This document shows, one piece after another, positions 32,108-53,576 of a stretch of DNA of 64,000 nucleotides; position 1 is the first letter of the stretch; every line of letters begins with the position of its first letter. Source of the stretch: Escherichia coli. Its GTDB lineage: Bacteria; Pseudomonadota; Gammaproteobacteria; Enterobacterales; Enterobacteriaceae. The notes under the pieces are model-generated. The model did not search any database, was not told the DNA's origin, and saw only the letters and a list, made by a program, of their open reading frames with translations. A program made the translations under genes and the position numbers. The stretch lies in assembly GCF_003018255.1 (NCBI RefSeq), contig NZ_CP027440.1; one strand, written 5' to 3'.

Positions 32108-32283
32108 GCTGTATTCCTTATTTGGACCATACAGAGAGAAAAACCGGTACAGATGAGGCTAAAAAACCGGATGCAGATGCTGTTTTAACCTGTCTGTATG
32201 TTAAATAAAACTAATATTTGCATCTGTATTGTGAACTGCCAGAAGACGGATGATGAAGCCTCTGAAAGATGAGGAGGCAGCAG

Positions 32284-32448
32284 ATGGAATTTCACGAAAA
32301 CAAAGCTAAAGCACCGTTTATTGGACTTGTGCAACTCTGGCAGGCAGTGAGGCGTTGGCGGCGGCAAATGCAGGCCCGGCGGGTGTTACAGCAGATGAGT
32401 GATGAGCGGTTGAGGGATATTGGGTTACGCAGGGAGGATGTGGAGTGA
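32284..32448 (+). CDS. yjiS: DUF1127 small protein YjiS
   Basis: 54-aa ORF MEFHENKAKAPFIGLVQLWQAVRRWRRQMQARRVLQQMSDERLRDIGLRREDVE, found by hand (below the ORF-track length cutoff); recognised as YjiS. Confidence 0.75.
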   Translation: MEFHENKAKAPFIGLVQLWQAVRRWRRQMQARRVLQQMSDERLRDIGLRREDVE

Positions 32449-32544
32449 TGGGGCAGTTCGTCGCGGATAAACAGGATTTCTCTATAACCTCCACAAGGAA
32501 GTGGTTATTATTGCGAAATCATCGCTTCACGGAAAGACGTCAGA

Positions 32545-34638
32545 ATGAAAGCTACAGAAGCCCGCCTACTCGATTTTTTAAAACGTTCGCAGCAGTTTGT
32601 TATTCCCATTTATCAACGGACTTATTCATGGACAGAACAACAATGTCGGCAACTTTGGGACGACATCATTCGTGCCGGAAAGCGTGACGATATATCAGCG
32701 CATTTTATCGGTTCGGTTGTTTATATAGAGCAGGGATTGTATCAGGTTTCTGGTATTTCTCCGTTGCTGGTCATTGATGGTCAACAGCGGCTGACGACCG
32801 CAATGTTGCTGATTGAGGCTTTATCACGCCATCTTGGCGAAGACGAAGTTTTTGATGGCTTTTCAGCAATGAAATTGCGTAATTATTATTTACTCAATCC
32901 TTATGAGTCCGGCGAGAAAGGATTTAAATTACTGCTGACCGAGACTGATAAAGACAGTTTGCTGGCGTTAATAAAACAAAGACCAATGCCAGAAAACTAT
33001 TCCCATCGAATAATGGAAAACTTTACTTTCTTTGATGAACAAATTGCCAAACTCGGTGATGACTTGATCCCCTTATGTCGTGGGTTAGCAAAGTTATTAA
33101 TTGTCGATGTGGCGCTTAATCGTGGTCAGGATAATCCGCAACTGATTTTTGAAAGTATGAACTCCACCGGTAAGGCGTTAAGTCAGGCCGATCTGGTGCG
33201 CAATTTTATTCTGATGGGCCTCGAACCAGAGCATCAAACCCGGTTGTATGAAGATCACTGGCGTCCAATGGAAGTCGCTTTTGGTCAGCAAGGTTACAGC
33301 GAATATTTTGACAGCTTTATGCGTCATTATCTGACGGTAAAAACGGGGGAGATCCCTCGGACAGATGAAGTCTATGAGGCATTTAAACTCCATGCCCGCA
33401 GCCAGAGTGTTGCTGAAAAAGGCGTAGATCGGCTGGTTGAAGATATTCACATCTACGCGGAGTATTACTGTGCAATGGCATTGGGAAAAGAAAGTGACAA
33501 ATCGCTTGCTACGGCTTTTCAGGATTTGCGCGAGTTAAAGGTCGATGTGGCATATCCTTTCTTACTGGCGCTTTATCATGACTATAAAAATGGCGATTTG
33601 CCTCACGAAGATTTCCTGAGCATAATTCGTTTAATTGAATCTTATGTTTTCCGCCGTGCAGTATGTGCGATTCCGACGAATTCTCTTAACAAGACGTTTG
33701 CCACTTTTTATAAAGTCATTAATAAAGAAAAATATCTGGAAAGTATTCAGGTACATTTTCTGAATCTGCCTTCATATCGTCGTTTCCCCAACGATGATGA
33801 ATTTAAACGGGAATTAAAAGTTCGCGATCTCTATAACTTCCGTAGTCGCAGCTACTGGTTACGACGACTGGAAAACGATAAACGCAGAGAGCGCGTGGAA
33901 GAGTTTACGATTGAGCATATTATGCCGCAGAACGAAAATCTGTCGGCTAAATGGCGCGAAGAGTTGGGAAGCGACTGGCAGCGTGTGCATAAAGAATTGT
34001 TACATACGTTGGGGAATCTCACTTTAACGCGCTATAACTCCCGCTACAGTGACAGACCTTTCGCGGAAAAACGCGATATTGAAGACGGCTTTAAGCATAG
34101 CCCGCTTTATTTGAATATCGGTCTTGGACAGTGCGAAAAATGGGATGAAGCCGCCATTCACGCCCGAGCCGATCGTCTGGCCGATCTTGCGGTTCAGGTT
34201 TGGCAAGCGCCTGCTCTTCCTGAAGAGGTTTTAGCTGTTTATCGGGCGCAGCCGGAGAACAAAACCAGTTACAGCCTGAGTGATTATCCTTTTCTTGCTG
34301 ATGGTTCGCATAGCCGGGTGTTATTTGATCATCTTCGCGATGAAGTTATGCGCCTGGACGCAGGGATCACGCAGGAAGTATTGAAGCTCTATATTGCGTT
34401 TAAAGCTGAAACGAATTTTGTTGATGTTGTGCCGCAAAAAAGCCGACTGCGATTGTCGCTTAATATGCAGTTTCATGAACTGGTCGATCCGAAAGGTATT
34501 GCCAAAGATGTGACAAATGTTGGGCGATGGGGCAATGGCGATGTGGAAATTGGTTTCAGTGACCTCGCACAACTTCCTTACATTATGGGATTAATTCGTC
34601 AGGCATTTGAAAAACAGATGGAGAACGCGTTGGTATAA
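32545..34638 (+). CDS. DUF262 (ParB-like NTPase) + DUF1524 (His-Me finger nuclease) fusion protein; GmrSD-like putative type IV modification-dependent restriction endonuclease
   Basis: 697-aa ORF. N-terminal DUF262 hallmarks (FVIPIYQRTYSW and the DGQQR motif in LLVIDGQQRLTTAMLL); C-terminal DUF1524 hallmark (FTIEHIMPQN ... LGNLTLTRYN). Sits in the slot that holds yjiT/yjiV/mcrBC in K-12. Confidence 0.8.
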   Translation: MKATEARLLDFLKRSQQFVIPIYQRTYSWTEQQCRQLWDDIIRAGKRDDISAHFIGSVVYIEQGLYQVSGISPLLVIDGQQRLTTAMLLIEALSRHLGEDEVFDGFSAMKLRNYYLLNPYESGEKGFKLLLTETDKDSLLALIKQRPMPENYSHRIMENFTFFDEQIAKLGDDLIPLCRGLAKLLIVDVALNRGQDNPQLIFESMNSTGKALSQADLVRNFILMGLEPEHQTRLYEDHWRPMEVAFGQQGYSEYFDSFMRHYLTVKTGEIPRTDEVYEAFKLHARSQSVAEKGVDRLVEDIHIYAEYYCAMALGKESDKSLATAFQDLRELKVDVAYPFLLALYHDYKNGDLPHEDFLSIIRLIESYVFRRAVCAIPTNSLNKTFATFYKVINKEKYLESIQVHFLNLPSYRRFPNDDEFKRELKVRDLYNFRSRSYWLRRLENDKRRERVEEFTIEHIMPQNENLSAKWREELGSDWQRVHKELLHTLGNLTLTRYNSRYSDRPFAEKRDIEDGFKHSPLYLNIGLGQCEKWDEAAIHARADRLADLAVQVWQAPALPEEVLAVYRAQPENKTSYSLSDYPFLADGSHSRVLFDHLRDEVMRLDAGITQEVLKLYIAFKAETNFVDVVPQKSRLRLSLNMQFHELVDPKGIAKDVTNVGRWGNGDVEIGFSDLAQLPYIMGLIRQAFEKQMENALV

Positions 34639-34684
34639 CGTGGCGAATAATACCCGGTAGCACTGGCGCTACCGGGTCAATGTA

Positions 34685-35026
34685 TCAGGCGACTTTCTGT
34701 TTACCCGCAATCACCCCAATAAATTCCCGCACCTGCTTTTGTTTACGCGCCGACAGCTTGCACACCTGGCGCAGCGACTGCATTAGCTCGCTCTCTTCGG
34801 GGGCGGGTGGTTGGGCGGTGAGGACAATACAGCCTTCCATCACTTTGACAGCTATCGCCGTGCCGGTGGCAAAACCGGCGGCTTCCAGCCACTGACCTTT
34901 CAGGGTGATGGCGGGAATACGGCTGTAATCCGGGTAGCGACTCGCATAACTCACGGTTAATTGACGGTTATTTGCCGGGGAGACTTCTGCTTCGAACGGT
35001 TGTGCAATAGAATGCGTGTCAGTCAT
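34685..35026 (-). CDS. symE: SymE, SOS-induced toxin-like protein (type I toxin-antitoxin, AbrB-fold endoribonuclease)
   Basis: Start trimmed to [52 protein letters not shown] (113 aa); lies immediately upstream of hsdS as in K-12. Confidence 0.9.
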
Positions 35027-35100
35027 AACTGCTATTCCTTGAAAATAGTGATTGTGATGAGCGGTGCGGGTGTGTTGGCGCACATCCGCACCGCGCTAAA
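35015..35100 (+). ncRNA. symR: Putative SymR antisense sRNA (antitoxin) overlapping the symE start and 5' UTR; boundaries approximate
   Basis: Known arrangement: SymR is transcribed antisense across the symE translation start. A TAGAAT -10-like hexamer at 35008-35013 and a strong stem-loop at 35061-35094 are present on the plus strand. Ends were not mapped. Confidence 0.3.
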
Positions 35101-35103
35101 TAC

Positions 35104-35119
35104 CTGGATATATCATCAG
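35104..35119. promoter_or_regulatory. Putative LexA box (CTG-N10-CAG) upstream of symE
   Basis: CTGGATATATCATCAG, an AT-rich dyad of the CTG-N10-CAG type, about 80 bp upstream of the symE start; symE is a known SOS gene. Confidence 0.45.
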
Positions 35120-35246
35120 TAAATACAGGGAAAGTCCAGCTAAAAATTAATGAAAATAAGATAGAAGTTAGCGTGAAATATAATTTTTGGTGATGTGAAT
35201 AAAGCGGCTATTGAGCCGCTTTATTGGTTTTATGAGGGCGAGAAAA

Positions 35247-36983
35247 TTAGTTTATCGCCGCGTTAGTCAGTGCGTCTGCAAGGTGCAGTTGGGTTTGTTG
35301 GGCGGTTTTTATACGAGTTTTAAGCTTATCGCATAGTTCATGAAGTAAACCTACTTGTGAAAATATTCTATATTGTTCAGTTAATGGTGGGCATGGGAAT
35401 GAATACAACATTACACTATTTGCTGATAGGTTGGGTTGTGCTGAGCCATTATCAAAGCGGTAAATCTGTGAGCGCCCAAATGGACTGGTTAAATAATTAT
35501 AAATATACCCTCCCATTTCTGTGATAAATGGTCTAATGATCATTAGTGATGAGGCAATAGCTCCTGTTTCATAGGGGGTTACAAAGGCAGTTTTACCAAA
35601 AGTTGCTCCTCGTAGGCAATAAACCAAATCACCTTTTTGAATTTTCCCACTTCTTAATTCATTAAATTTTCCTTCGGTTATAAAATTCATTTCTGTAACC
35701 GTAAGTGTACCATTTTTTTCTATATGTCCAGTATTGATCCAAGGAATACCTTGAGAAACATACTCATTTTTATTGGGATAATTACTTCCACGATCGCCAT
35801 TTATAAACTCTGATGTTAAACCAAATTTACACCACTCCCACCCTTCCGGCAGTTCAAACGGTTTTTCCTCATTGCTAATTGGCGGTAGTGGTTTTTGTTT
35901 TTTTATTTTCCCTTCTTTCACCAGTTGAGCTTTTTCCTGCGCAATTCGTTTGAGCAGTTCAGAGGCGGGTTCGTCATTCGGATCCTGCGGCACAAGTTTA
36001 CCCATTACGGCCAGTTGAAGAATGGTCTGTTTTAACGCATCCACGCTGGCTTCGGTGGTAAATAGGGTGTCGAAATGCTCGCTAATACGCGCCCAGTTTT
36101 CAGCCAGTTCCTCGGCGTTTTGGCTGTCTGTAAGCGTTCCCAACAGGGTTTCAACCAGTTGCTGATGTGCGTCCAGACTGGTCAGGGATTGCTGTTCCAG
36201 TTGGTCGCAGAGAACTGTAAGTTCTCTGATTTTTCTGACAATTTGTTGTTGTTCATTTATAGGCGGTAAAGCGATTATCTGTTGTTCCATTTTTTCTTTA
36301 GTCATATGGAGCATTGCAATACCGTTACCTTGCGATTTTATTTTATCTGTAATGGATAAAAGAAAATCATGTATAAAATATTTGTTTGAGTACTCTTCTG
36401 CAAATAAATTTAATTTCCATATATGGTAGTGATAAATTACTTTTTCTCCTGTCCAAATGAATGGCCCAAAAGATGCGGACCAAGCGTATATTAAATCACC
36501 ATTATTTATATATTTGTTTTCGTCTAATTGGAGGTCAGAGTAATACCACTCATTTGATGTGAATAGATTACCAACACGCAGCAAAGGAGTGCCTGTTTGA
36601 AGCATTTCATGTTTTTTATATGCTCGACCGTTAATAACCTCCATGAGATCTGCAACCCGCACCCACTCCCATCCCTCCGGCAATTCAAACGGCTTCTCTT
36701 CCTCGCTAATTCCTGGCAGTGGTTTTTGCTTTTTAATTTTACCTTGCTTCACCAGCTCTGCTTTTTCCGCAGCAATACGCTTCAGCAGCTCCGACGCCGG
36801 TTCATCATTCGGATCCTGCGGCACCAGTTTACCGCGCACCGCCAGTTCCAGAATCAGCTCACGCAATTTCTTAATGCCATACAAATCAATTTTACCGGAA
36901 CTGCCGCGCCCGGCGGTGGAACGGGTTTGCAACGCCGAGGTCCAGGTTTCCATATGATCAACGATCAGCTTTTCCACACTCAT
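35247..36983 (-). CDS. hsdS: Type I restriction-modification specificity subunit HsdS (non-EcoKI allele; family-IB-like domain order)
   Basis: 578-aa ORF with two variable target-recognition regions. A conserved segment occurs twice, at the N-terminus and in the centre (GKLVPQDPNDEPASELLKRIA.EKA.LVK.GKIKKQKPLP.IS.EEKPFELPEGWEW). Its ATG overlaps the hsdM stop (ATGA). Confidence 0.88.
   Translation of the reverse strand: MSVEKLIVDHMETWTSALQTRSTAGRGSSGKIDLYGIKKLRELILELAVRGKLVPQDPNDEPASELLKRIAAEKAELVKQGKIKKQKPLPGISEEEKPFELPEGWEWVRVADLMEVINGRAYKKHEMLQTGTPLLRVGNLFTSNEWYYSDLQLDENKYINNGDLIYAWSASFGPFIWTGEKVIYHYHIWKLNLFAEEYSNKYFIHDFLLSITDKIKSQGNGIAMLHMTKEKMEQQIIALPPINEQQQIVRKIRELTVLCDQLEQQSLTSLDAHQQLVETLLGTLTDSQNAEELAENWARISEHFDTLFTTEASVDALKQTILQLAVMGKLVPQDPNDEPASELLKRIAQEKAQLVKEGKIKKQKPLPPISNEEKPFELPEGWEWCKFGLTSEFINGDRGSNYPNKNEYVSQGIPWINTGHIEKNGTLTVTEMNFITEGKFNELRSGKIQKGDLVYCLRGATFGKTAFVTPYETGAIASSLMIIRPFITEMGGYIYNYLTSPFGRSQIYRFDNGSAQPNLSANSVMLYSFPCPPLTEQYRIFSQVGLLHELCDKLKTRIKTAQQTQLHLADALTNAAIN
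35832..36020. repeat. Internal direct repeat of hsdS, copy 2 (central conserved region)
   Basis: About 190 bp of high DNA identity to 36663-36852, including the shared core TCATTCGGATCCTGCGGCAC. Confidence 0.8.
36663..36852. repeat. Internal direct repeat of hsdS, copy 1 (N-terminal conserved region)
   Basis: Direct repeat partner of 35832-36020. Confidence 0.8.
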
Positions 36984-38452
36984 CAGTTAACCTCCTTGCC
37001 AGACAGCGCAGCGCCAAGAATATCGCGCAGTTGATTACGCAGCGTCTGGATCTCCGCCTGCTGTTTTGCATACTGCGCTAACAGTTCGTCCGGGTCATGG
37101 CTGACGGTTTCCGCCTGATGTGGGTTTTTAATATCCAGATTGAAGTTACGCGCAATCACGTCATCAATGCTGACTTTCCACGCTTGCTCATTCTCGATGC
37201 GGCTGGCAAAACCATCGGCCTCGTTACCCCACCAGTCAATCTCCGCCTGAAACTCTTCGAACTTCATCGGCTTGGTTTTACTGTAATTTTTCACGCCCGC
37301 CGGATACGGATGCTCATAGAACCAAATCTCTTTGGTTGGCTGACCTTTGGTAAAAAACAACAGGTTGGTTTTAATGCCGGTATAGGGGTTAAACACACCA
37401 TTCGGTAAACGCACGATGGTATGCAGATTGCACTCTTCGGTAAGCAGCTTTTTGATTTTGGTTTTAACGCCTTCGCCAAATAGCGTGCCATCCGGCAATA
37501 CCACCGCCGCGCGACCGTTTTTCGCCAGTACTTCCACAATCAGTTGCAGAAACAGATCCGCTGTTTCGCGGGTTTGCATCTCTGCCGGAAAGTTCTTCTC
37601 AATACCGTCTTCTTCCGTGCCACCAAACGGCGGGTTGGTAACAATGACATCCAGTTGCTCATCCCAGGAGGAAAGCGGTTTGTTCAGGGTGTTGTCGTGA
37701 CGAATTTGTACAGGCACTTCAATGCCGTGCAGCAGCATATTGGTGGTCGCCAGCAGGTGCGGAAGCTGTTTTTTCTCGACACCGTGGATCTGTTGTTGCA
37801 GCGTCTGATGATCGGCGACGCTCTTCACGTATTTGTTCTTTACATGATCGAACGCGCAGGCAAGAAAACCGCCCGTACCGCAGGCCGGGTCCATAATGGA
37901 TTCGCCGAGTTTCGGATCAACGCGATCCACCATAAAGCGAGTGACGGCGCGTGGCGTATAGAATTCGCCAGCATTGCCCGCAGATTGCAGATCTTTAAGG
38001 ATCTGTTCGTAAATATCACCAAACAGATGGCGTTCGCTGGCGCTGGTAAAGTCAATTTCGTTCAGCTTGTTGATCACCTGGCGCAGTAGCGTACCGTTTT
38101 TCATATAGTTATAGGCATCGCTGAACGCCTGCTTCACCACGTAGCCGCGTGGGTTTTTATCGATAGGCGCAGTGAGGTTTTTCAACGCCGGGAACAGATC
38201 ATCATTAACGAATTCCAGCAGGGAATCACCGGTAATGCCCTGAGCGTTTGCGGCCCAACTGCGCCATAAATAACGCTGTGGGATCGGATATTGATAGTTA
38301 TCCTGCTCCAGTTCCAGCGCCTCTTCCTGGGCATCGAAGATTTTCAAAAACAGCAGCCAGGAGAGCTGACCGAGACGCTGCGCATCGCCATCCACACCGG
38401 CATCTTTGCGCATAATATCTTGTAATGATTTGATTACTGAACTGATAGACAT
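36983..38452 (-). CDS. hsdM: Type I restriction-modification N6-adenine DNA methyltransferase HsdM (non-EcoKI allele)
   Basis: SAM-binding motif I (DPACGTGGFL) and catalytic motif IV (VVTNPPFGG). Start trimmed to MSISSVIKSL (489 aa). Confidence 0.88.
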   Translation of the reverse strand: MSISSVIKSLQDIMRKDAGVDGDAQRLGQLSWLLFLKIFDAQEEALELEQDNYQYPIPQRYLWRSWAANAQGITGDSLLEFVNDDLFPALKNLTAPIDKNPRGYVVKQAFSDAYNYMKNGTLLRQVINKLNEIDFTSASERHLFGDIYEQILKDLQSAGNAGEFYTPRAVTRFMVDRVDPKLGESIMDPACGTGGFLACAFDHVKNKYVKSVADHQTLQQQIHGVEKKQLPHLLATTNMLLHGIEVPVQIRHDNTLNKPLSSWDEQLDVIVTNPPFGGTEEDGIEKNFPAEMQTRETADLFLQLIVEVLAKNGRAAVVLPDGTLFGEGVKTKIKKLLTEECNLHTIVRLPNGVFNPYTGIKTNLLFFTKGQPTKEIWFYEHPYPAGVKNYSKTKPMKFEEFQAEIDWWGNEADGFASRIENEQAWKVSIDDVIARNFNLDIKNPHQAETVSHDPDELLAQYAKQQAEIQTLRNQLRDILGAALSGKEVN

Positions 38453-38518
38453 GTTGTATTCCATGAAAAACAAGGCCTTCTGCAACATGATGGTTGCAGA
38501 AGGCGCAAAAGAGAGTTG

Positions 38519-40951
38519 TTAAGCAGAGCGGGGCGGTAATTGGTAGATTTCGTTTTCCAGCTCGCTGAGCGCCTGATTATACCCGTTACGGTCGCCAAAT
38601 CCGGTTTTAATAATCTCCGGTAAGGTGCCCATGCTGTCGAATGGTTTAAGTTTCAGCACCTGAATACTTTCGATCTCCTGTACGCCCGCATCGGCGTATT
38701 TATCCAGCAGATTATCGAGCACGGCTTGCGCTGCTTCAGAGTATTTTGTGAAGTAGTTCCGCTTGCGCACGTTCTCGGCGCGCTCTTTGCGGGTTAACGG
38801 CGGCTGACCATACACTACGTGGCAAAGCATGTCGAACGGGTCGAGATCTTTACCGACTTCTTCTGCCAGTACTTCCCAGATGATCCCCTGTTGTTCCAGC
38901 TCGTGAATGATCGCTTCTTTGCGATCGGCGTCCTGCCACTTGCGGGTAAAGTCATCCAGCGAGGCATATTCTTTGAGCAGTGTTTTGCGGGTGTAATCTT
39001 TAAAAGATTCGGTAACCAGTTTACCGTCGGCATCGTAATACTGAACACGCTGCGCAATAACGCCCACCGCTACACCGTTGACGTGAAACTTGCGGATTTT
39101 CTTCTCGTCTTCTTCCGGAAGTGGGCCGACATCATCGGTATCGGTAACCTGGTATGGTGGCGCAGGCGGTTCATCAACGCCTGTTACCTGTTCGTCGTCA
39201 TGTTCGCTGATTTCTTCGAGTTTCTCTTCAAAATCAGATTCTGGATCGGCGATATCCTCTGATGTGGTATCCATGACTTTTTCGGGAATGCCATCGAAAC
39301 GCTCATCGGCAAACAGTTCGGTGGCTTTTTTAAAGTCGAGGATGGTAAACCAGAGTTTGCCGTAACGTTCGTCGATGCGTGTACCACGACCGATAATTTG
39401 CTTGAATTTGGTCATCGACTGGATGTTCTGGTCCAGTACTACCAGTTTGCAGGTTTTAGCATCCACACCAGTGGTCATCAGCTCTGAAGTGGTCGCGATA
39501 ACCGGGTACGCTTTTTTCGGGTTGATGAAGTTATCCAACTGAGCTTTGCCAATTTCATCATCGCCGGTGATTTTCATGACGTATTTGTCGTTCTTTTTCA
39601 CCTGCTCCGGGTTGAGATTCACCAGGGCGCGGCGCATACGTTCTGCATGATCGATGTCGTTACAGAAGACGATGGTTTTATCCATCGGGTTGGTGCGCTT
39701 GAGGTAGTCGGTAATGGTTCTGGCAACCAGTTCTGTCCGTTCGTCGATTACCATCGTGCGATCGAAATCTTTCTGGTTATAGATACGATCGTCGATCACT
39801 TCGCCGTTTAAGTCAGTTTGCCCTTTGGTTGGGCGCCAGCCTTGCAGATCAACATCAATATCAACACGGACAACTTTATAAGGGGCGAGGAAGCCGTCTT
39901 CGATCCCTTCTTTTAGCGAGTAGACGTAAACCGGATCGCCGAAGTAATCCGTGCTGGAGACTTCATGCGTCTCTTTTGGCGTGGCGGTTAAGCCAATTTG
40001 GGTGGCGGAACTGAAATAATCAAGGATCTCTCGCCAGGCGCTGTCTTCGGATGCGCTGCCGCGATGGCATTCGTCGATCACGATCAGATCGAAGAAATCT
40101 GGTGCGACTTGTTTAAACGCTTTTTGGTCTTCCTCCGGGCCAGTTATAGCCTGATAGAGCGCGAGGTGAATTTCATAAGCGGGATCAATGGTGCGTCCGC
40201 TGACTTTGGTCATTGCCGTACCAAATGGCTGGAAATCATTATTTTTGGTTTGGTCGACCAGAATGTTGCGATCGGCAAGGAACAAAATGCGTTTTTTATT
40301 TTTTGATTTCCACAGGCGCCAGATGATCTGGAATGCGGTATAGGTTTTCCCTGTTCCGGTCGCCATGACCAGCAGAACGCGGTTTTGCCCGTTGGAGACG
40401 GCTTCAATGGTTTTGTTGATTGCCTGAAGCTGGTAATAACGAGGCGATTTGCCGCTGCCATCGTCGTAATAGTCCTGAGTAATCACCGGAAGCTGAGCTT
40501 GTGTGTATCCTTTCCAGAGGCAGAATTTTTGCCAGAGTTCAGCGGGGGAGGGGAAGTCATCCAGCGTTATTTGCTTTTCAAGGCATTCACCTTCAGCTGC
40601 GGTGGCATCGCGGAAGATAAAGCCATCACCGTTGGTGGCAAAAACAAAAGGAACGTCCAGCAGGCGCGCATATTCAATGCCCTGTTGCATCCCTTTGCCA
40701 ATTTCATGTTTGTTGGCTTTTGCTTCAATCACGGCTAAGGGAATGCCTGGTTTGTGATACAGCACGATGTCAGCAGATTTTACCGTTCTGCGTGCCGCAA
40801 CTTTACCACGTACGATGACTTTACCGTTCCGGAGTTTGACCTCCTGTCTGATTTGCGTTGTGTTGTCCCAGCCTGCATTGAGAATGGCTGGCATAACGCA
40901 TTTGGTAATGATGTCTGCTTCCGTCAGGTTACTTAGGTTCAGTTCCGCCAT
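38519..40951 (-). CDS. hsdR: Type I restriction-modification endonuclease/translocase HsdR (810 aa, non-EcoKI; family-IB-like)
   Basis: N-terminal PD-(D/E)XK nuclease region ([19 protein letters not shown]), SF2 helicase Walker A (MATGTGKT) and motif II (DECHR). Much shorter than the roughly 1170-aa EcoKI HsdR. Confidence 0.88.
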
Positions 40952-41091
40952 GGGGTGTTCTCATCTAAATGCGATGCGTAAATTCTACACAGAAAAATAG
41001 ATGAATTCATCTGTTCAAAGAGTATTATCAGCGTTAAGTCACTGTTTTAAAGGTATTCTTGAGTTTCATCAATAGCTGGATAAGGATTCAT

Positions 41092-42060
41092 ATGGAGAAT
41101 GTTCGGTTCTTGCAAGGAGTGAAACAATATTTTTGTACTAAGGCATTAGATGTCATTCTGCTAATTTATCTACTCCTTGGTTTTATACTTCTCCCTTATA
41201 AATATCTGTGGAAAGATATTATTTTATCTCTGTACTTTGTTGGTATTCTTCTTTATGCATTAGTGGAAGAAAATCGCATTGCAGAATATATGGGGTATTT
41301 TGTTAAGTTCAGTAATAAAAACAGGTTGAATAGTTGTGCTGCCTGGTGTTCACTTATTGCATGGTTTATATTTTTGTTTTTTGTGCTTTCAATTAATATT
41401 TTTCCAGTCAGTGCCTCTGTATATATTTTTAGTGCTTTTTCATTATTTGTTTTTCTGGGGGGTATTTTTATTATATTAGAGTTAGAGTTTAAAGAAAATA
41501 AAAAATTAATGATTATTAGGTCTGTGACTATAGCAGTCATGCCAATTATATATTTATTCACAAGTAGTTATGCTTCCAGTTTATTTTTAAGTTTGAGTAA
41601 TCTAAACATTACGCTAACTCCATGGGTTGAGTATTTCTGGAAAGGGATGGTTTTTATGTTGCTTTTCTTCATGTTAATGCAACTTATTATCTATTTTGCT
41701 TTTTTAACTCTGGGGACTAAATTAAGTGTGTATAGGTTGTTTATACTTGCCGGAGCATTTGTAGTATCTACTTTTTTAGTGGCTTTTGCTTTAAAAAATG
41801 TAGAAGGTATTTCGTACTACGTTTTAAAAAGCACCATAGATTTTGAATGGCGTAATCAGATTAAATGTGGCCAGTTGAATATTTCACGTTCGAATGAAAA
41901 GTATTTTGGGTTTAATACTGATAAATATACTGTATTTTATTCCGGCAGAGATGGTAAATGGGGCTTTGATGAGTTGAAATGTAAGAAAGGTTCTGACAGG
42001 AGAGATGCATATTCTATTGAGAATGTCTCAGAATATAACGTGCCTGGATGGCTGAAATAA
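41092..42060 (+). CDS. Hypothetical multi-pass membrane protein with C-terminal soluble domain, strongly AT-rich (foreign composition); occupies the position of mrr in K-12
   Basis: ORF-track frame 41059-42060 (TTG start); trimmed to ATG at 41092, preceded by AAGGA. At least six hydrophobic helices (e.g. ILLIYLLLGFILLP, IAWFIFLFFVLSINIF, MVFMLLFFMLMQLIIYFAFLTL), then a charged C-terminal tail of about 80 aa. I recognise no catalytic motif. Confidence 0.6.
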   Translation: MENVRFLQGVKQYFCTKALDVILLIYLLLGFILLPYKYLWKDIILSLYFVGILLYALVEENRIAEYMGYFVKFSNKNRLNSCAAWCSLIAWFIFLFFVLSINIFPVSASVYIFSAFSLFVFLGGIFIILELEFKENKKLMIIRSVTIAVMPIIYLFTSSYASSLFLSLSNLNITLTPWVEYFWKGMVFMLLFFMLMQLIIYFAFLTLGTKLSVYRLFILAGAFVVSTFLVAFALKNVEGISYYVLKSTIDFEWRNQIKCGQLNISRSNEKYFGFNTDKYTVFYSGRDGKWGFDELKCKKGSDRRDAYSIENVSEYNVPGWLK

Positions 42061-42377
42061 GTCATCTTTATAAATTATATAGTAAAGGTTCTGGTCATAA
42101 ACGAGCATAGTTAAACATAAACGGGGCATACTCCACACACTTGATGTGCAGCAAGAAGTTGAACTCATGGCTTTGGTTAATAAATCTGACGAAGATATTG
42201 ATTACAGCGACATTCCTGCGTCTGGTAGCGAAGCATGGGCTGACGCCACACGCGGCAATTTTTTGCCAGATCCAGGTATTCACGCGCAATAAAACTTAGC
42301 GGAGGGGAGCACGTCGTTCTGTTTCCCCCTCACTGCTAAGTGGGGCATTGGGTTGCTTTACACTCAACCTTTTACGA

Positions 42378-46015: not shown

Positions 46016-47236
46016 TTAGAAGAGAGTGTCTAATTCTGCCAGTACGTTGTAGTCGTCATCAGTCAATAACAACGTTTTCCATTTGTCGAAGGTCAGGCAC
46101 GGATGCGATGTGCCAAACACCAGAATATCCCCCACTTGCACGTCGCTATTAGCTGACAGTTGCAACATGCAGTGCTGATCCATAATACCTGTACTGCGAA
46201 TCGCCTGTGGATCAAATGCCAGTGATTTGCCGTTGCGGTAGTGGGCGACTGGTTGCGGCAGTCCGGCGTCGAAGGCGCAATCACGCTTACCAAAATTTAC
46301 CACCGCACGATCAGCTTCCGGCACCGATTGCACCATGGCGACCAGTTCCAGCGCAGATGTGAGATCGCCTGCCAGATCGCAGGCCACAGGATCACGGGCA
46401 AGCAACTGTTGTTGTGCCGCGTCGTAGATCCCGGTGTCGTGAGTGATGTAGCAGCCAGGGCGAATAACAATGCGGCAGTTATCAGGCTTTTCTGCCGCCA
46501 GCCAGATATTGCACACCACGTCATACCAGACCGTGCCTGCTCCGGTGAGAATAAACTCGCCATCAACCAGACTTGCCATATCACAGGCCAGTTGTGCGGC
46601 ATCCCGCAGCAGAGCTTCTACCTGCGGTTGTGGATCGTCACCGTGTAAAACGCCTTCATATAACTCAAGCCCCCGCAGGCGTAACCCCGGTAATTGGGCT
46701 GCCTGTTTAGCCAGTGTCAGTGCGGCATCCCTTGAGCGGCAACCACAGCGCCCGCCGGGGACACCCAACTCAATCATCACGTTCAGTGTCTGTTGCTGAC
46801 TGGCAAAAAAGGCAGACAAAGCGCGGGCGTTCTCAATGCTGTCGATACAGCAGATAAAATCGACCGTCGGGTAATGTCGTTGCAACTGGGCAATCAACTG
46901 CATATTCGCCTTGCCGACCAGCTGGTTAACCATCAGCACTCGCTGAATACCGCTCGCCATTGCCGCACCAGCCTGCCATGCGCTACCGACACCTATTGCC
47001 CAGGCGCCTGCCGCCTGCTGCGCCTGAAAAATCCACGGCGTCATGGTGGTTTTACCGTGCGGTGCCAGCGAAACGCCGCGCGCGTCAGCATAACGCTGCA
47101 TCCACGTAATGTTGTTCTCCAGGGCCTGCTTTTTAATGATCGCGGCAGGTAAACAGACATCTTCGGCAAGGAGATTTGCGGGCATTTGCATCAGGGCAGA
47201 TTTATGGGGAACCAGAGGTTCTGAGTGGTATTTCAT
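46016..47236 (-). CDS. DSD1-family PLP enzyme (alanine-racemase-fold N-domain; D-serine dehydratase / D-threonine aldolase-like)
   Basis: 406-aa ORF; N-terminal region LPAAIIKKQALENNITWMQRYADARGVSLAPHGKTTM resembles the lysine-containing PLP site (RPH-K-T-H-K type) of DSD1/YGL196W enzymes. True start among M1/M16/M18 is uncertain. Confidence 0.65.
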   Translation of the reverse strand: MKYHSEPLVPHKSALMQMPANLLAEDVCLPAAIIKKQALENNITWMQRYADARGVSLAPHGKTTMTPWIFQAQQAAGAWAIGVGSAWQAGAAMASGIQRVLMVNQLVGKANMQLIAQLQRHYPTVDFICCIDSIENARALSAFFASQQQTLNVMIELGVPGGRCGCRSRDAALTLAKQAAQLPGLRLRGLELYEGVLHGDDPQPQVEALLRDAAQLACDMASLVDGEFILTGAGTVWYDVVCNIWLAAEKPDNCRIVIRPGCYITHDTGIYDAAQQQLLARDPVACDLAGDLTSALELVAMVQSVPEADRAVVNFGKRDCAFDAGLPQPVAHYRNGKSLAFDPQAIRSTGIMDQHCMLQLSANSDVQVGDILVFGTSHPCLTFDKWKTLLLTDDDYNVLAELDTLF

Positions 47237-47286
47237 AACATTTACCTTTTAAGTTTTTCACCGTATCGGATGTGAGTATCACTTGT

Positions 47287-47313
47287 AACTAAATGAAATA
47301 TAAATATTTAGTT
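47287..47313. promoter_or_regulatory. Perfect 8-bp inverted repeat (AACTAAAT-N11-ATTTAGTT) in the divergent promoter region; candidate operator
   Basis: Read directly from the sequence; sits in the AT-rich gap between the DSD1-like gene and the D-aminoacylase operon. Confidence 0.4.
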
Positions 47314-47427
47314 TATTTATCTTATTATTTATGAATAAAAGTATCATAAAATCATCTGGGTTTTGCGTAGTTTTCCACTGTTTTTCGTCCTTGTAAATGG
47401 TTAACTTGTCACCATTGCAGAAATGGA

Positions 47428-48879
47428 GTGACGAACATGCAGGTTGACTGGTTAATCAAAAATGTGACCGTTATCGACGGTAGCGGCGGCCCTGAATTTC
47501 GCGGTGACGTGGCAATAACAGGTGATCGGATTGTCGATATTGCCCCTGCGCTTAACGTTACGGCGCAGCAGGTCATTGACGGGGAAGGGCGGGTGCTGGC
47601 ACCCGGGTTTATCGACGTTCATACCCATGACGATATCAACGTTATTCGCATCCCGGAATATCTGCCAAAGATCAGCCAGGGGATCACTACGGTGATTGTC
47701 GGTAACTGCGGGATTAGTGCGGCGTCGGCGAAAATGAAAGGTGAAGTTCCTGACCCGATGAATCTGTTGGGGGAAGCAGAGCACTTTATTTATCCTACCG
47801 TTGAAAGCTATGCCCAGGCAGTGGAAGCAGCCAGGCCGTCACTGAACGTTGGCACGCTGATTGGTCATACGGCGCTGCGTAATAACCATATGGACGACCT
47901 GTTTCGCCCGGCGACGGTGGATGAAATTGCCGCTATGCGTGCCGACTTACGTCTGGCGTTGAGTCAGGGGGCGCTGGGGTTAAGTTCCGGGCTGGCCTAT
48001 GCAACGGCATTTCAGGCGACTACCGAAGAAGTCATGGCGCTGGCGGAAGAATTAGCCGGTGAGAAGGGCGTTTATACCACCCATCTGCGTTCTGAATTTG
48101 AACCGATTCTCGATGCCCTGGATGAGGCGTTTCGTATTGGGCGTCATGGCAAAGTGCCTGTCGTGGTTTCCCACCATAAATGTGCCGGGGCGAAAAACTG
48201 GGGGCGGACAAAAGAAACGTTGGCCTTTTTTGACCAAATGCGTCAACACCAGGAAATTGGCTGCGATGTCTACCCTTACTCAGCCAGCTCTTCAACGCTG
48301 GATCTCAAACAAGTCACCGACGAATTCGATATTGTGATCACCTGGTCACAAACACATCCGCAGCAGGCCGGGAAAACACTGGCGCAAATCGCCATCGACT
48401 GGCAGATGAGTATGCTGGAGGCCGCGAAGCTGCTAATGCCTGCCGGGGCTATCTATTACAACATGGACGAGCGCGACGTCCGCCGAGTGTTGAGTTATCC
48501 GGTCAGTATGATTGGCTCTGACGGCCTGCCCAATGATCCCATGCCGCATCCACGTTTATGGGGCGCCTTCCCTCGCGTGCTGGGCCACTATTGCCGTGAT
48601 GAAGGCTTATTCCCACTGACCACGGCTATCCACAAAATGACCGGGCTTTCTGCCAGCCGTTTTCGCCTGCCCCAGCGTGGACTGGTGAAAGTCGGTTATT
48701 TTGCGGACCTGGTGTTGTTCGATCCACAAACCATTCGTGATGTTGCCAGCTTTTCTGATCCCAAACGCCCGGCAGATGGCATTGAGGCGGTGATGGTGAA
48801 CGGCGTTATGAGCTATGGTCCCGATAAACATATTACAGGCCGTGCGGGACGCTTCCTGCGCCGGCAGACCTCACATTAA
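47428..48879 (+). CDS. N-acyl-D-amino-acid deacylase (D-aminoacylase) family amidohydrolase
   Basis: 483-aa ORF; N-terminus DWLIKNVTVIDGSGGPEFRGDVAITGDRIVDIAPAL...APGFIDVHTHDD is typical of metal-dependent D-aminoacylases. Start is M1 or M4. Confidence 0.75.
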   Translation: MTNMQVDWLIKNVTVIDGSGGPEFRGDVAITGDRIVDIAPALNVTAQQVIDGEGRVLAPGFIDVHTHDDINVIRIPEYLPKISQGITTVIVGNCGISAASAKMKGEVPDPMNLLGEAEHFIYPTVESYAQAVEAARPSLNVGTLIGHTALRNNHMDDLFRPATVDEIAAMRADLRLALSQGALGLSSGLAYATAFQATTEEVMALAEELAGEKGVYTTHLRSEFEPILDALDEAFRIGRHGKVPVVVSHHKCAGAKNWGRTKETLAFFDQMRQHQEIGCDVYPYSASSSTLDLKQVTDEFDIVITWSQTHPQQAGKTLAQIAIDWQMSMLEAAKLLMPAGAIYYNMDERDVRRVLSYPVSMIGSDGLPNDPMPHPRLWGAFPRVLGHYCRDEGLFPLTTAIHKMTGLSASRFRLPQRGLVKVGYFADLVLFDPQTIRDVASFSDPKRPADGIEAVMVNGVMSYGPDKHITGRAGRFLRRQTSH

Positions 48880-48882
48880 GGA

Positions 48883-49278
48883 GTGAATATGAGCATTAAA
48901 CGTTACGGTACGGAAGGTGGAACAGGCACTGGCGGGCAGCATTTGCCTTTTGCCAGGGCGGTTGAGGCGGGCGGCTGGCTGTACGTCTCCGGGCAAACAC
49001 CCATGAAAAACGGTGAAGTGGTAGAAGGCGGAATCGTTGAACAGTCACGACTGGCGATCCAAAACTGTGTCGACATCATGACTGAAGCCGGTTATAGCCT
49101 GGCGGATGTGGTTCACGTGAAAGTGATCCTGACCGACGCCCGCTATTTCCAGTCATTTAATAAAGTATTCAGAGAATTTTTTGGCGAGAATCCGCCTGCA
49201 CGTATTTGTTGTGTGGCTGATCTGGTTGTCGATTGTAAAGTCGAAGTCGATGTGACCTGTTATAACGCGACCCGCTAA
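48883..49278 (+). CDS. RidA/YjgF/TdcF-family reactive enamine/imine deaminase
   Basis: 131-aa ORF (...GGWLYVSGQTPMKNGEVVEGG...ARICCVADL...), characteristic of the RidA fold; starts 4 nt after the aminoacylase stop. Confidence 0.75.
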   Translation: MNMSIKRYGTEGGTGTGGQHLPFARAVEAGGWLYVSGQTPMKNGEVVEGGIVEQSRLAIQNCVDIMTEAGYSLADVVHVKVILTDARYFQSFNKVFREFFGENPPARICCVADLVVDCKVEVDVTCYNATR

Positions 49279-49380
49279 TAAATTTAAGAATTAAAAAAAC
49301 AGACCGCAATTGAGTGCTGAATACATTCAGCACTCCGGGAACTCTTACATTAATTTCTCTCTACTGGCAGGATGTGAATT

Positions 49381-50850
49381 ATGAACAGTCATATCTTTTT
49401 AGTCGGCTTTATTATTTATGCCATCGCCATGATTTGGCTTGGTTGGTTTGTTTCTCGTAATCAGAAAAGCGGAGAAGATTTTCTGCTGGGCGGGCGTTCG
49501 CTGCCGCTGTTTCTGACGCTGGGGTCAACCGTTGCCACGATGGTTGGCACGGGTTCCAGTATGGGGGCAGTGGGCTTTGGCTACAGCAATGGCTGGGCCG
49601 GAATGCTTTATGGCGTCGGTGGAGCCGTAGGTATATTGCTGGTGGCGTGGCTGTTTGCACCGGTACGTAAATTACGTTTTATGACCATGAGTGAAGAACT
49701 CTCTTATTATACTGGCGGTAGTCATTTAATTAAAAATATTGTCGGCCTGATGATATTTATTGCCTCTATTGGCTGGCTGGGGGCGCATATATTAGGTGGA
49801 AGTATGTATCTTGCCTGGGCGACGGGTATTGATCTTACTGTGGCAAAATTAATTATCGCCTTAGCTTTTGCGATTTATGTTATTATCGGCGGTTATTCGG
49901 CGGTAGTGTGGACAGATACTATTCAGGCCCTAATTCTGTTCTTTGGCTTTATATTAATGGCTATTCTTGCCGTTGTTCACGTTGGCGGCTGGAGTGCGAT
50001 TGAGCAGGCGATGGACCCAAAAGCGATGAGCCTGTTTGCGATTGATAAAATGGGCGTGCTGCCTGCGCTTTCGCTGGCACTGGTTATTGGCGTAGGTGTG
50101 CTGGCAACACCGTCTTATCGCCAGCGTATTTACTCGGGTAAAGATGTTCCCTCTGTACGCCGTTCGTTTGTTATTACTGGGGTGTTATATCTGTTCTTCT
50201 CGATTTTGCCTGCCATTATCGGCATGGCGGCGTTCACCATGAACCCAAATCTGGAAAACAGCAACTACGCCTTCTTGTTCGCGACCAGTTTCTTACCTGC
50301 CATTCTTGGGCTGGTGGTGCTGATTGCCGGGCTTTCAGCCACCATGTCTTCTGCCAGCTCCGATGCCATCGCGGCGGTGGCGATTATGATGCGCGACGTC
50401 TACACCATGATTACCGGCAGAATGCCGCCGGAGGACAAGGCCATTACTTACTCACGCTGGATGTTGACCTTTGTTATTGGCCTGGCGCTGGTCTTTGCTC
50501 TGACCTCTAATGACATCATCAGCTACATTACCAAAATGATTTCGATGCTGATGTCCGGGCTGTTTATCTGCTCGATTCTCGGTCGCTTCTGGCTACGCTT
50601 TAACTGGCAGGGCGCGCTGGCGGTGTTAGTGAGCGGTATGGTGATGTCAATTGTGGTGCTGATGAATGCCGACTGGCTGGCTTACTGGGGTAACCCGTGT
50701 ATTCCGTCAGTGCTGGGCAGCCTGGTCGCTGGCGTACTGGTGACGTTGGTAACGCCAGCAAGTCAGGTCAGCCGGGAAGAAGCTTTGGCGATTATCACCA
50801 ATGAGCGTGAAAACCAGAGTGTCGTGATCACCAAACCTGAAGAAGCATAA
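49381..50850 (+). CDS. Sodium:solute symporter family (SSF) transporter
   Basis: 489-aa polytopic membrane protein with PutP/PanF-like helices; third gene of the plus-strand operon. Confidence 0.75.
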   Translation: MNSHIFLVGFIIYAIAMIWLGWFVSRNQKSGEDFLLGGRSLPLFLTLGSTVATMVGTGSSMGAVGFGYSNGWAGMLYGVGGAVGILLVAWLFAPVRKLRFMTMSEELSYYTGGSHLIKNIVGLMIFIASIGWLGAHILGGSMYLAWATGIDLTVAKLIIALAFAIYVIIGGYSAVVWTDTIQALILFFGFILMAILAVVHVGGWSAIEQAMDPKAMSLFAIDKMGVLPALSLALVIGVGVLATPSYRQRIYSGKDVPSVRRSFVITGVLYLFFSILPAIIGMAAFTMNPNLENSNYAFLFATSFLPAILGLVVLIAGLSATMSSASSDAIAAVAIMMRDVYTMITGRMPPEDKAITYSRWMLTFVIGLALVFALTSNDIISYITKMISMLMSGLFICSILGRFWLRFNWQGALAVLVSGMVMSIVVLMNADWLAYWGNPCIPSVLGSLVAGVLVTLVTPASQVSREEALAIITNERENQSVVITKPEEA

Positions 50851-50859
50851 CCAACAATG

Positions 50860-51765
50860 CTAATCGCCAAGTGGCTGGCGGTTAGCGCCCCCACGGTGGC
50901 TGTCTAACACCAGTTTTATCCGCCGCAGGCGATCTTTCGCCTGCGCTTTATTTGCCATTGCCAGTTCTGTTGCCAGTACATCGACCATGGCTAACATCGC
51001 GTAGCGGGAAGGGGTGGGCTTAAAGATGTAATCACTTTCCTGAACCAGTAACGGCAATACCAGATCCACCTGTTCCGCCAGCGGTGTTTGTGCTGGTGTA
51101 ATGGCAATAACACGCGCGCCATACTGACGGGCGATTGCCGCACTTTCGATGATTTCCGGTGTATAACCGCCCAGCGACAGTACAATCACCACATCCTGCG
51201 GCATCACTGCCGAGCACATCATTCTCATCATCAGGGCATCATTCTGACTGACCACCGGTAGCCCCAGACGGAATAAACGGTACTGAATCTCCTGTGAACA
51301 GATGGTGGAACCGCCGCCAGTTCCCAATGCAAGAATTTGCCGCGCCTGACTTAACCAGCTTACAGCCTGGCTGATGGCATTCATATCCAGCGAACGACGA
51401 TGCGTTTCCAGCACGCTAATAATCGCTTCGTAGATCCCCTGAACACCGTCAAGATCCGGTACATCGAGAATAAACCGCTGCCCGACAGCCAGTGACTGCG
51501 CCAGTTTGACTTTCAACTCGCGGACATCTTTGCACCCCAGTGCACGGGCAAAACGCGTCACCGACGCCTGACTGGTTTGCGTTAACCGCGCCAGCTCAGC
51601 AATGGGCAGTTCCACCGCGGCGGGGACATCATCAAGAATAAATTGTGCGATACGCTTTTCAGTGGCGGTTAACGCCATAAACCGTTCGGTAATACAGGAG
51701 ATGATATCGATGCTATAAGCCATAGGAGTATCACTGGTTCGAAGAAGATTGATACTTTGTACCAT
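50860..51765 (-). CDS. RpiR/MurR-family transcriptional regulator (helix-turn-helix + SIS sugar-phosphate-binding domain)
   Basis: N-terminal HTH (LTATEKRIAQFILDDV...IAELARLTQTSQASVTRFARALG) followed by a SIS-like domain (ILALGTGGGS). Start uncertain. Confidence 0.72.
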   Translation of the reverse strand: MVQSINLLRTSDTPMAYSIDIISCITERFMALTATEKRIAQFILDDVPAAVELPIAELARLTQTSQASVTRFARALGCKDVRELKVKLAQSLAVGQRFILDVPDLDGVQGIYEAIISVLETHRRSLDMNAISQAVSWLSQARQILALGTGGGSTICSQEIQYRLFRLGLPVVSQNDALMMRMMCSAVMPQDVVIVLSLGGYTPEIIESAAIARQYGARVIAITPAQTPLAEQVDLVLPLLVQESDYIFKPTPSRYAMLAMVDVLATELAMANKAQAKDRLRRIKLVLDSHRGGANRQPLGD

Positions 51766-51904: not shown

Positions 51905-53569
51905 ATGTTAAAACGTATCAAGATCGTGACCAGCTTACTGCTGGTTTTGGCCGTTTTTGGCCTTTTACAACTGACATCAGGCGGTCTGTTCTTTAATGCC
52001 TTAAAGAATGACAAAGAAAATTTCACTGTTTTACAAACCATTCGCCAGCAGCAATCCACGCTGAATGGCAGCTGGGTTGCGTTGTTGCAGACGCGTAACA
52101 CCCTCAACCGCGCGGGTATCCGCTACATGATGGATCAGAATAATATTGGTAGCGGTTCAACCGTTGCTGAGCTGATGCAGAGTGCCAGTATTTCGCTGAA
52201 ACAGGCGGAAAAAAACTGGGCGGATTACGAAGCGTTGCCGCGTGACCCGCGTCAGAGCACCGCCGCAGCGTCAGAGATCAAACGTAATTACGATATTTAT
52301 CACAATGCGCTGGCGGAGCTGATCCAACTGTTAGGTGCAGGCAAAATCAACGAGTTCTTTGATCAACCGACCCAGGGATATCAGGACGGTTTCGAGAAGC
52401 AGTATGTGGCTTACATGGAGCAAAACGATCGGCTCTATGATATCGCCGTCAGCGATAACAATGCCTCCTACAGCCAGGCGATGTGGATTCTGGTAGGCGT
52501 GATGATCGTCGTACTGGCGGTCATCCTCGCCGTCTGGTTCGGTATTAAAGCCTCGCTGGTCGCGCCAATGAATCGCCTGATTGACAGCATTCGTCATATT
52601 GCAGGCGGCGATCTGGTGAAACCGATTGAGGTGGATGGCTCTAATGAGATGGGGCAACTGGCAGAGAGTTTGCGCCATATGCAGGGAGAGCTGATGCGTA
52701 CCGTCGGTGATGTGCGCAACGGGGCCAATGCCATCTATAGCGGTGCCAGCGAAATCGCCACCGGCAATAACGATCTCTCTTCGCGCACCGAGCAACAGGC
52801 CGCTTCGCTGGAAGAGACGGCAGCCAGCATGGAGCAACTGACCGCAACGGTGAAGCAGAACGCCGAAAATGCGCGTCAGGCCAGCCACCTGGCGTTAAGT
52901 GCTTCCGAAACGGCGCAACGCGGCGGCAAAGTGGTGGATAACGTGGTGCAGACTATGCGCGATATCTCCACCAGTTCGCAGAAAATCGCCGATATTATCA
53001 GCGTAATTGACGGTATTGCCTTCCAGACCAATATTCTGGCTTTGAACGCGGCGGTTGAAGCAGCGCGCGCGGGTGAGCAAGGGCGCGGTTTTGCGGTGGT
53101 TGCGGGAGAAGTGCGTAATCTGGCCCAGCGTAGCGCTCAGGCTGCTCGTGAAATTAAAAGCCTGATTGAAGACTCGGTGGGGAAAGTGGATGTTGGCTCT
53201 ACGCTGGTCGAAAGCGCCGGGGAAACAATGGCGGAGATTGTCAGTGCCGTGACCCGCGTGACGGACATTATGGGCGAAATTGCTTCTGCTTCTGATGAGC
53301 AGAGCCGTGGTATCGATCAGGTTGGCTTAGCGGTTGCTGAGATGGACCGGGTAACCCAACAAAACGCCGCGCTGGTGGAAGAATCTGCCGCTGCCGCCGC
53401 CGCGCTGGAAGAGCAGGCCAGTCGCCTGACCGAAGCAGTGGCAGTGTTCCGGATTCAGCAACAGCAGCAACAGCAGCGTGAAACATCGGCTGTAGTAAAA
53501 ACCGTGACGCCAGCTACGCCGCGTAAAATGGCCGTGGCAGATAGCGGCGAGAATTGGGAAACGTTTTAA
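51905..53569 (+). CDS. tsr: Serine chemoreceptor Tsr (methyl-accepting chemotaxis protein I), allele with an extended Gln run
   Basis: Start trimmed to [24 protein letters not shown] signalling domain; C-terminal ...NWETF pentapeptide; seven-Gln run ([13 protein letters not shown]). Confidence 0.93.
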
Positions 53570-53576
53570 TCGCCAT

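Follow-up and report, generated by a model that had tools for sequence, protein, structure and literature searches.

A glutamine run near the C-terminus of the Escherichia coli serine receptor Tsr is probably an in-frame 9-bp variable-number tandem repeat

The tsr gene of the analysed sequence

We studied a stretch of 64,000 nucleotides of Escherichia coli DNA (contig NZ_CP027440.1 of assembly GCF_003018255.1), hereafter called the window, and in particular its tsr gene (Table 1). The annotated start of this gene is an ATG (MLKRIK...), and the list of open reading frames places it at a GTG 15 nt further upstream. The RefSeq annotation of the collinear genome 2017.09.02CC has tsr at the matching position, and RefSeq gives this name to the matching gene in all the genomes listed. 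The gene of the window differs from that of K-12 at 33 of 1,656 aligned nucleotides (98% nucleotide identity) and in both genomes the convergent lgoT lies downstream, so that it is the ortholog of K-12 tsr in sequence and in synteny. Precomputed Pfam matches on proteins that are 100% or 99% identical to the product comprise PF02203 (TarH), PF00672 (HAMP), and PF00015 (MCPsignal). These are the TarH/4HB periplasmic sensor, HAMP, and signalling domains of the Tsr-type methyl-accepting chemotaxis proteins (MCP), i.e., the pentapeptide-bearing receptors of the 36-heptad class. The C-terminal end, ...SGENWETF, has the xWxxF pentapeptide that closes the non-conserved linker of such receptors. The secondary structure predicted by AF2 is a long helical hairpin, as expected for an MCP. 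By its domains, pentapeptide, sequence identity, and synteny, the protein is classified as Tsr, and its orthology predicts that it senses serine and docks CheR and CheB.

Table 1. Coordinates of the features of the window discussed in the text.
Feature	Position	Strand	Remarks
tsr, serine chemoreceptor (methyl-accepting chemotaxis protein I)	51905..53569	+	554 aa plus stop codon; from open reading frame and annotation
C-terminal tether, residues 517-549	53453..53551	+	from I517 to the residue before NWETF; 33 residues vs 30 in K-12
Gln7 run, Tsr residues 518-524	53456..53476	+	perfect 9-bp tandem repeat, (CAGCAACAG)x2 plus CAG; variable part of tsr
NWETF pentapeptide, residues 550-554	53552..53566	+	read directly; CheR/CheB function from the literature
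Inverted repeat, perfect 11-bp, 8-nt loop	53581..53610	.	in the 48 bp that separate the convergent tsr and lgoT
GmrSD-type restriction endonuclease	32545-34638	+	
EcoEI-family type I hsdS/hsdM/hsdR set	35247-40951	-	
333-aa ORF	41059-42060	+	no Pfam match

The hairpin that separates tsr from lgoT has a T-tail on the minus (lgoT) strand only, and it is probably a terminator shared by the two genes. An antisense ORF of 72 aa at 53268-53486 was also considered as a functional gene and rejected as being without support.

A repeat unit of 9 bp

The preliminary description of this DNA reported seven consecutive glutamines within 53449-53480, just ahead of a flexible C-terminal tail whose last residues are NWETF. 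This segment reads CCGGATTCAGCAACAGCAGCAACAGCAGCGTG and encodes R-I-Q7-R in the frame of tsr; it comprises the glutamine run and parts of the flanking Arg, Ile, and Arg codons. The sequence bears out both the run and its placement just before and within the tail. The codons of the run are CAG CAA CAG CAG CAA CAG CAG. Glutamine accounts for 6.6-7.8% of Tsr, a composition from which approximately 3e-6 to 9e-6 runs of at least seven are expected, and none was obtained in 200,000 shuffles of the protein. A run of seven glutamines is beyond chance. It is also the longest run of a single residue among the ORFs of at least 100 aa in the window.

Tandem Repeats Finder describes the run as a head-to-tail repeat with a period of 9 (CAGCAACAG, i.e., QQQ), 2.4 copies, and 100% matches. 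Treated as a repeat of period 3, it has only 78% matches because CAA interrupts CAG. The same unit accounts for the differences between strains. The tsr gene of K-12 MG1655 has CAGCAACAGCAG at this position, which encodes four glutamines in a protein of 551 aa, and is exactly 9 nt shorter than that of the window. When the protein of the window is aligned with PDB 6S1K (K-12 Tsr, 551 aa), the gap of three residues falls inside the run. The preliminary description had stated that K-12 Tsr is three residues shorter here and proposed this alignment as a check, and the counts, seven in the window against four in K-12, agree with it. We also aligned the repeat of the window with those of five E. coli genomes. 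UTI89 has CAGCAACAGCAG, four glutamines, and 551 aa; the window, strain 2017.09.02CC, and Nissle 1917 have one unit more than K-12 (seven glutamines, 554 aa), and GF130 has two units more (10 glutamines, 557 aa). The repeat unit of the glutamine run of tsr is thus 9 bp, not 3 bp.

The length of a low-complexity stretch could in principle be an artefact of sequencing or assembly, but nothing speaks for this beyond the general difficulty of assembling repeats. The repeat, with its 21 bp, is far shorter than any read, and the same seven glutamines are present in about 4,055 independently finished genomes and in PDB 3ZX6. We regard the probability of such an artefact as negligible and have ruled it out.

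Lengths of the run in complete genomes

We searched the 5,426 complete E. coli genomes of RefSeq, of which approximately 5,342 carry tsr. In the latter, the allele with seven glutamines (7Q) was found approximately 4,055 times (76%), 4Q approximately 1,210 times (23%), 10Q 72 times (1.3%), and 13Q three times, these percentages not being population frequencies, since clinical clones and laboratory strains are over-represented among RefSeq complete genomes. Hence, one, two, three, or four units give 4, 7, 10, or 13 glutamines and proteins of 551, 554, 557, or 560 aa, all of which occur naturally.

The counts were obtained with several queries. A query of 191 nt across the repeat had matches in 5,345 genomes. 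All of the 30 sampled rows with at least 95% identity had the length of the window, and sampled rows below 95% were 9 nt shorter, with the exception of one that was 9 nt longer. A query of 113 nt from K-12 (4Q) placed 4,055 genomes in the band corresponding to a gap of one unit, where 44 of 44 sampled rows span 9 nt more; another 1,286 genomes matched it at 95% or more, a group that includes the 10Q and 13Q genomes. The 10Q alleles are not countable from such identity bands: two pieces joined across the 18-nt gap score about 99% identity, as in H53. Stringent E-value cut-offs were used instead for 10Q and 5Q. A synthetic 10Q query at E<=1e-50 matched 72 genomes, among them LF82, NRG 857C, HS, MP1, and an O104:H21 strain, and 40 of 40 sampled rows span exactly 130 nt. 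The 13Q alleles, with a span of 139 nt, are in RM14723, A13, and Z1323HEC0355, and were confirmed from the whole tsr genes of the first two.

Intermediate lengths were absent from the survey. The weakest match to the 10Q query at E<=1e-50 is still 10Q, and neither 9Q nor 11Q was found in the 5,426 genomes. Synthetic 6Q and 8Q queries had no match of the same length, their top rows being the three 13Q genomes followed by 7Q genomes with a 3-nt gap, and the 5Q query had no match at E<=1e-48 among the complete E. coli genomes. As these results rest on BLAST identity bands and E-values with flanks close to the consensus, an allele of odd length with at least three flanking SNPs could escape them. 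The search with the full-length Tsr protein returned only near-identical E. coli entries, and the proteins of 553 aa and 555 aa have indels elsewhere and are not 6Q or 8Q forms.

The population survey of linker length proposed with the preliminary description thus reveals that the length does vary, but the trinucleotide slippage that had been suggested does not fit a 9-bp unit with alleles of 4, 7, 10, and 13 glutamines only. Strains differ from one another by whole units of the repeat, whereas a polyglutamine expansion by triplet (CAG) repeats has a unit of one codon and a continuous range of lengths. Every allele examined remains in frame and keeps the NWETF end, hence the repeat cannot be an on/off switch. 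We have rejected phase variation on these grounds, and the locus, with its 9-bp unit, lacks the switching of expression that defines simple-sequence contingency loci. The 7Q allele is the majority form of tsr, and we are dealing with an ordinary length polymorphism. We think it likely that the glutamine run is an in-frame coding variable-number tandem repeat (VNTR), (CAGCAACAG)n plus CAG, of which the window has the most common allele in a well-known gene. It resembles the coding minisatellite or VNTR loci of enterobacteria used in MLVA typing, and the contingency loci, by its perfect short intragenic repeat and recurrent changes in copy number. It differs from them in having one to four copies only and a unit that is a multiple of three, so that changes in copy number always preserve the reading frame and phase variation of the on/off kind does not occur.

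Length changes on different backgrounds

Whole tsr genes were taken from 12 strains picked to include rare alleles, and a neighbour-joining (NJ) tree of 13 genes was built after removal of the repeat columns. Fitch parsimony gives at least eight length changes among the 13 tips, in a tree that was deliberately enriched for rare alleles and takes no account of intragenic recombination. Alleles of different lengths are often close relatives over 1,656 sites: O111 (7Q) and HS (10Q) differ at 2 nt, GF130 (10Q) and RM14723 (13Q) at 5, LF82 (10Q) and A13 (13Q) at 8, O157:H7 (7Q) and ET350 (10Q) at 13, and Nissle (7Q) and O104:H21 (10Q) at 17. Flanking sequences place the 10Q allele on four haplotypes or more, distinguished by SNPs that lie within tens of bases of the repeat. 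The 4Q allele occurs on the backgrounds of K-12 (linked to lgoT) and UTI89 (linked to a TRAP transporter), and with further tails among protein fragments. Conversely, a single protein tail (...SGENWETF) is found with 4Q, 7Q, and 10Q. Changes of one unit arose many times independently, and recurrent (homoplasic) change is what characterises coding VNTR, even if this sample was enriched for rare alleles.

The changes would arise by slipped-strand mispairing between 9-bp units during replication. Each length might instead have arisen once and then spread by homologous recombination, with no need for repeated slippage. The neighbourhood of tsr is mosaic, with lgoT or a TRAP transporter downstream and differing genes upstream, and recombination therefore does occur around the gene. 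But the 10Q alleles can be told apart by SNPs lying within tens of bases of the repeat on either side, the nearest relative of each is a 7Q or 13Q allele from the same background (HS and O111 being a case in point), and imports would require repeated tracts of less than about 100 bp. A single origin of each length followed by spread is therefore very improbable. Repeated slippage of units is the simplest explanation, and import by very short recombination tracts a weaker alternative.

Seven glutamines as the ancestral length

The preliminary description called the run of the window expanded. To orient the changes, we compared E. coli with one divergent Escherichia lineage, ten other genera, and short protein fragments of Escherichia-like or Salmonella origin, which are the basis of the polarity given here; E. 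albertii, E. fergusonii, and Salmonella tsr loci were absent among the matches listed in the genome scan, as was the locus of the E. coli representative. The divergent lineage, a separate species in GTDB, has a Tsr of 554 aa in which QQAQQRQ-HE matches, codon for codon, the QQQQQQQ-RE of E. coli. Escherichia-like fragments have QQEQQRQRE and QQEQKRQRE, and those of Salmonella have QQEQQRARE and QQQQQRARD. In Leclercia, Enterobacter, Citrobacter, and Kluyvera, the receptors are 553-557 aa long and have QQ[DE]QQ[KR]AR (e.g., QQEQQRA) at the position of the run.

Since 7Q is the majority allele, has the same length in the divergent Escherichia lineage, and corresponds to similar stretches in other enteric genera, we infer that a length of seven residues is ancestral and that the 4Q allele of K-12 is a contraction, i.e., a derived loss of one unit. 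The polarity implied by "expanded" is thus wrong: the window has the usual form, present in about 76% of the approximately 5,342 genomes, and the stretch of the divergent Escherichia lineage has the 7Q length. In this scenario, E. coli probably inherited an imperfect (QQx)2 periodicity that a few point substitutions turned into a perfect 9-bp repeat, which would hence have become prone to slippage. The 4Q allele, with only 1.3 units, would be hard to re-expand and may represent a stable derived state.

Place of the run in the receptor

In the constructs of the Parkinson lab, the conserved Tsr sequence is taken to end at residue 517 (PMC4692393), and the residues after it are treated in the literature as non-conserved and unstructured (PMC4692393, PMC10561060). 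Counted from I517, the tether has 30 residues in K-12 Tsr and 34 in Tar (PMC10561060), and the tethers of the 4Q, 7Q, 10Q, and 13Q alleles have 30, 33, 36, and 39. In our alignment of 28 ortholog sequences, N550, W551, E552, T553, and F554 are invariant and the preceding 30 or so residues diverge. Across genera, the tails of Tsr diverge after VFRI, and the sequence of the tether is not conserved. Known structures end nearby: the chain of 1QU7 ends in ...RIQQQ (residue 520), and that of 8C5V, based on cryo-ET, at residue 516. The AF2 model, a monomer built from the 28-sequence alignment (pTM 0.39) and used for the boundary between order and disorder rather than for helix packing, has a long helix to residue 513, a break at 514-518, and a short helix at 519-528, with pLDDT below 50 from residue 520 to 554. 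By these boundaries, the glutamine run makes up the opening part of the flexible tether, at the end of the C-terminal helix of the cytoplasmic bundle, and it possibly has some helical tendency.

A different effect would follow if the additional glutamines extended the methylation helix MH2 by about one turn, beside MH1 below the HAMP domain, and thereby altered the stability of the bundle and the signalling bias. Gln-rich stretches beside coiled coils tend to be helical, the chain of 1QU7 includes Q518-Q520, and AF2 does draw a short helix at 519-528. However, this helix has pLDDT below 50 and is parted from the main one by the break at 514-518, the chain of 8C5V stops before the run, residues after 517 are described as unstructured, and orthologs have unrelated sequences at the position of the run. 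An extension of MH2 is thus highly doubtful, and we retain the placement of the run at the base of the tether.

Predicted effect on adaptation

Linkers of 22, 29, 34, and 46 aa in Tar shift the most probable position of CheR, x0, by 0.128 +/- 0.048 nm per residue with an intercept of 6.0 nm (PMC10561060). Each step in the Tsr repeat would add or remove three uncharged residues, or about 1.1 nm of contour length, at the base of the tether. Under the tethered-particle model derived from Tar, x0 of bound CheR would then move by about 0.4 nm in about 10 nm, i.e., about 4% per step, an effect size that we carry over from Tar to Tsr by inference. The charge pattern of the linker (bioRxiv 2024.03.07.583918) is unaffected because glutamine is uncharged. 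Linkers found in nature are between 29 and 91 residues long. The tuning of tether length is thus physically plausible and its effect, as extrapolated, would probably be small. Most likely, the polymorphism is close to neutral; at best it would modify adaptation kinetics weakly and in a quantitative way, and it is not a switch. Against this speaks the spectrum of lengths, which has a strong peak at 7Q and does not extend beyond 13Q, and which stabilising selection for a certain tether length, rather than mutation alone, could have shaped.

Read along the lines of the preliminary description, the run would be a CAG/CAA trinucleotide tract, expanded in this strain by single-codon slippage and serving as an evolvable knob for the adaptive tuning of the CheR and CheB tether. 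The length of the run does vary recurrently among strains, linker length measurably affects the positioning of CheR in Tar, and the 33-aa tether of 7Q almost equals the 34 aa of Tar. Yet 7Q is the majority state and has the ancestral length, which leaves no expansion to explain, the steps are of three codons only with 78% matches at period 3, and the predicted effect per step, transposed from Tar data, is about 4% of the reach. We consider this account unlikely. The 9-bp repeat could still be a heritable dial of tether length (30, 33, 36, and 39 residues) under selection, which also strikes us as a rather slim prospect. If it were so, lineages would set the reach of docked CheR and CheB along the methylation sites of Tsr and into neighbouring receptors, serine adaptation would differ in speed and in precision by host or niche, and K-12, on which quantitative models are based, would carry an atypically short tether. 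The near-neutral length polymorphism remains our preferred reading.

In 2006, Li and Hazelbauer reportedly truncated the linker that joins the helical body to NWETF. The engineered Tar variants of 22, 29, 34, and 46 residues (PMC10561060) likewise alter how many residues this linker has, as do the natural alleles of Tsr. Both sets are laboratory constructs in Tar with larger steps, of 5-12 residues, at the end of the linker proximal to the pentapeptide, whereas the natural alleles have steps of three residues at the end proximal to the helix. K-12 Tsr (6S1K, 1QU7, 8C5V) shares with the window the chromosomal position next to lgoT, the domains, and the NWETF end, and differs in having one 9-bp unit fewer and PAAPRK...SEENWETF in place of PATPRK...SGENWETF. 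The last 101 residues of PDB 3ZX6, a fusion of the Af1503 HAMP domain with Tsr, are identical to those of the window, including the seven glutamines and SGENWETF, so that a clone and a deposited entry of the 7Q form already exist, albeit as an engineered chimera.

The 7Q sequence itself is thus already known, being annotated in most RefSeq E. coli genomes and present in 3ZX6, and the polymorphism is plain in public databases. In the open-access subset of the literature, we found no description of a repeat polymorphism in tsr. The direct importance of the finding is small, as this is the textbook Tsr in which the form with seven glutamines is the usual one. Of modest use to chemotaxis researchers may be that the receptor of K-12, the reference for essentially all quantitative work, has a minority contraction of the tether by three residues. 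It has been argued that the tether of Tsr (30 aa) is shorter than that of Tar (34 aa) to match the spacing of the methylation sites (PMC10561060). This argument holds for K-12 and not for most E. coli, where the tether of Tsr has 33 aa. The natural allelic series of 30, 33, 36, and 39 residues could serve to test the tethered-particle model of CheR without engineered sequences.

Other variation in tsr and its surroundings

The 3' end of the tsr gene of the window (53380-53570) is a rare nucleotide haplotype, with only 8 of 5,345 genomes at least 99% identical over 191 nt. The protein tail that it encodes is common, and is identical in O157:H7 and in PDB 3ZX6. Between 81 and 84 of the 5,426 complete E. 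coli genomes have no match to this 3' end, for which gene loss or disruption may apply, and three of the matches sit on plasmid-labelled records. A second homopolymeric run, of six alanines, lies inside the methylation helix (residues 495-500, 53387-53404), where Tandem Repeats Finder gives a period of 6 (CTGCCG) and 3.2 copies. Three Tsr database entries, a protein of 553 aa and two fragments, have five alanines. A deletion of one alanine in the methylation helix would shift its register, and these entries may be errors or defective alleles. Two other E. coli Tsr entries have in-frame internal duplications, one of 16 aa in HAMP (570 aa in total) and one of 14 aa in the first methylation helix (568 aa).

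The gene directly downstream of tsr (53618-54979 on the minus strand of the window) varies among E. coli. It is lgoT, encoding an MFS transporter, in the window, K-12, Nissle, HS, O157, O111, O104:H21, and ET350, and the gene of a TRAP transporter large permease in UTI89, GF130, LF82, RM14723, and A13. The 3' end of tsr hence abuts a mosaic junction. Upstream, between btsT and tsr (approximately 46016-51765), the window has five genes, named from the annotation of the collinear genome 2017.09.02CC, for an amino acid deaminase, an N-acyl-D-amino-acid deacylase, RidA, a sodium:solute symporter, and an RpiR/MurR regulator. In HS and O111, hpaR is directly upstream of tsr in place of this block. 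Further away, positions 32263-42376 of the window are absent from the nearest complete genome, with flanks that are 98.9-99.3% identical. This segment, which holds the two restriction systems and the 333-aa ORF of Table 1, is the usual variable immigration-control region.
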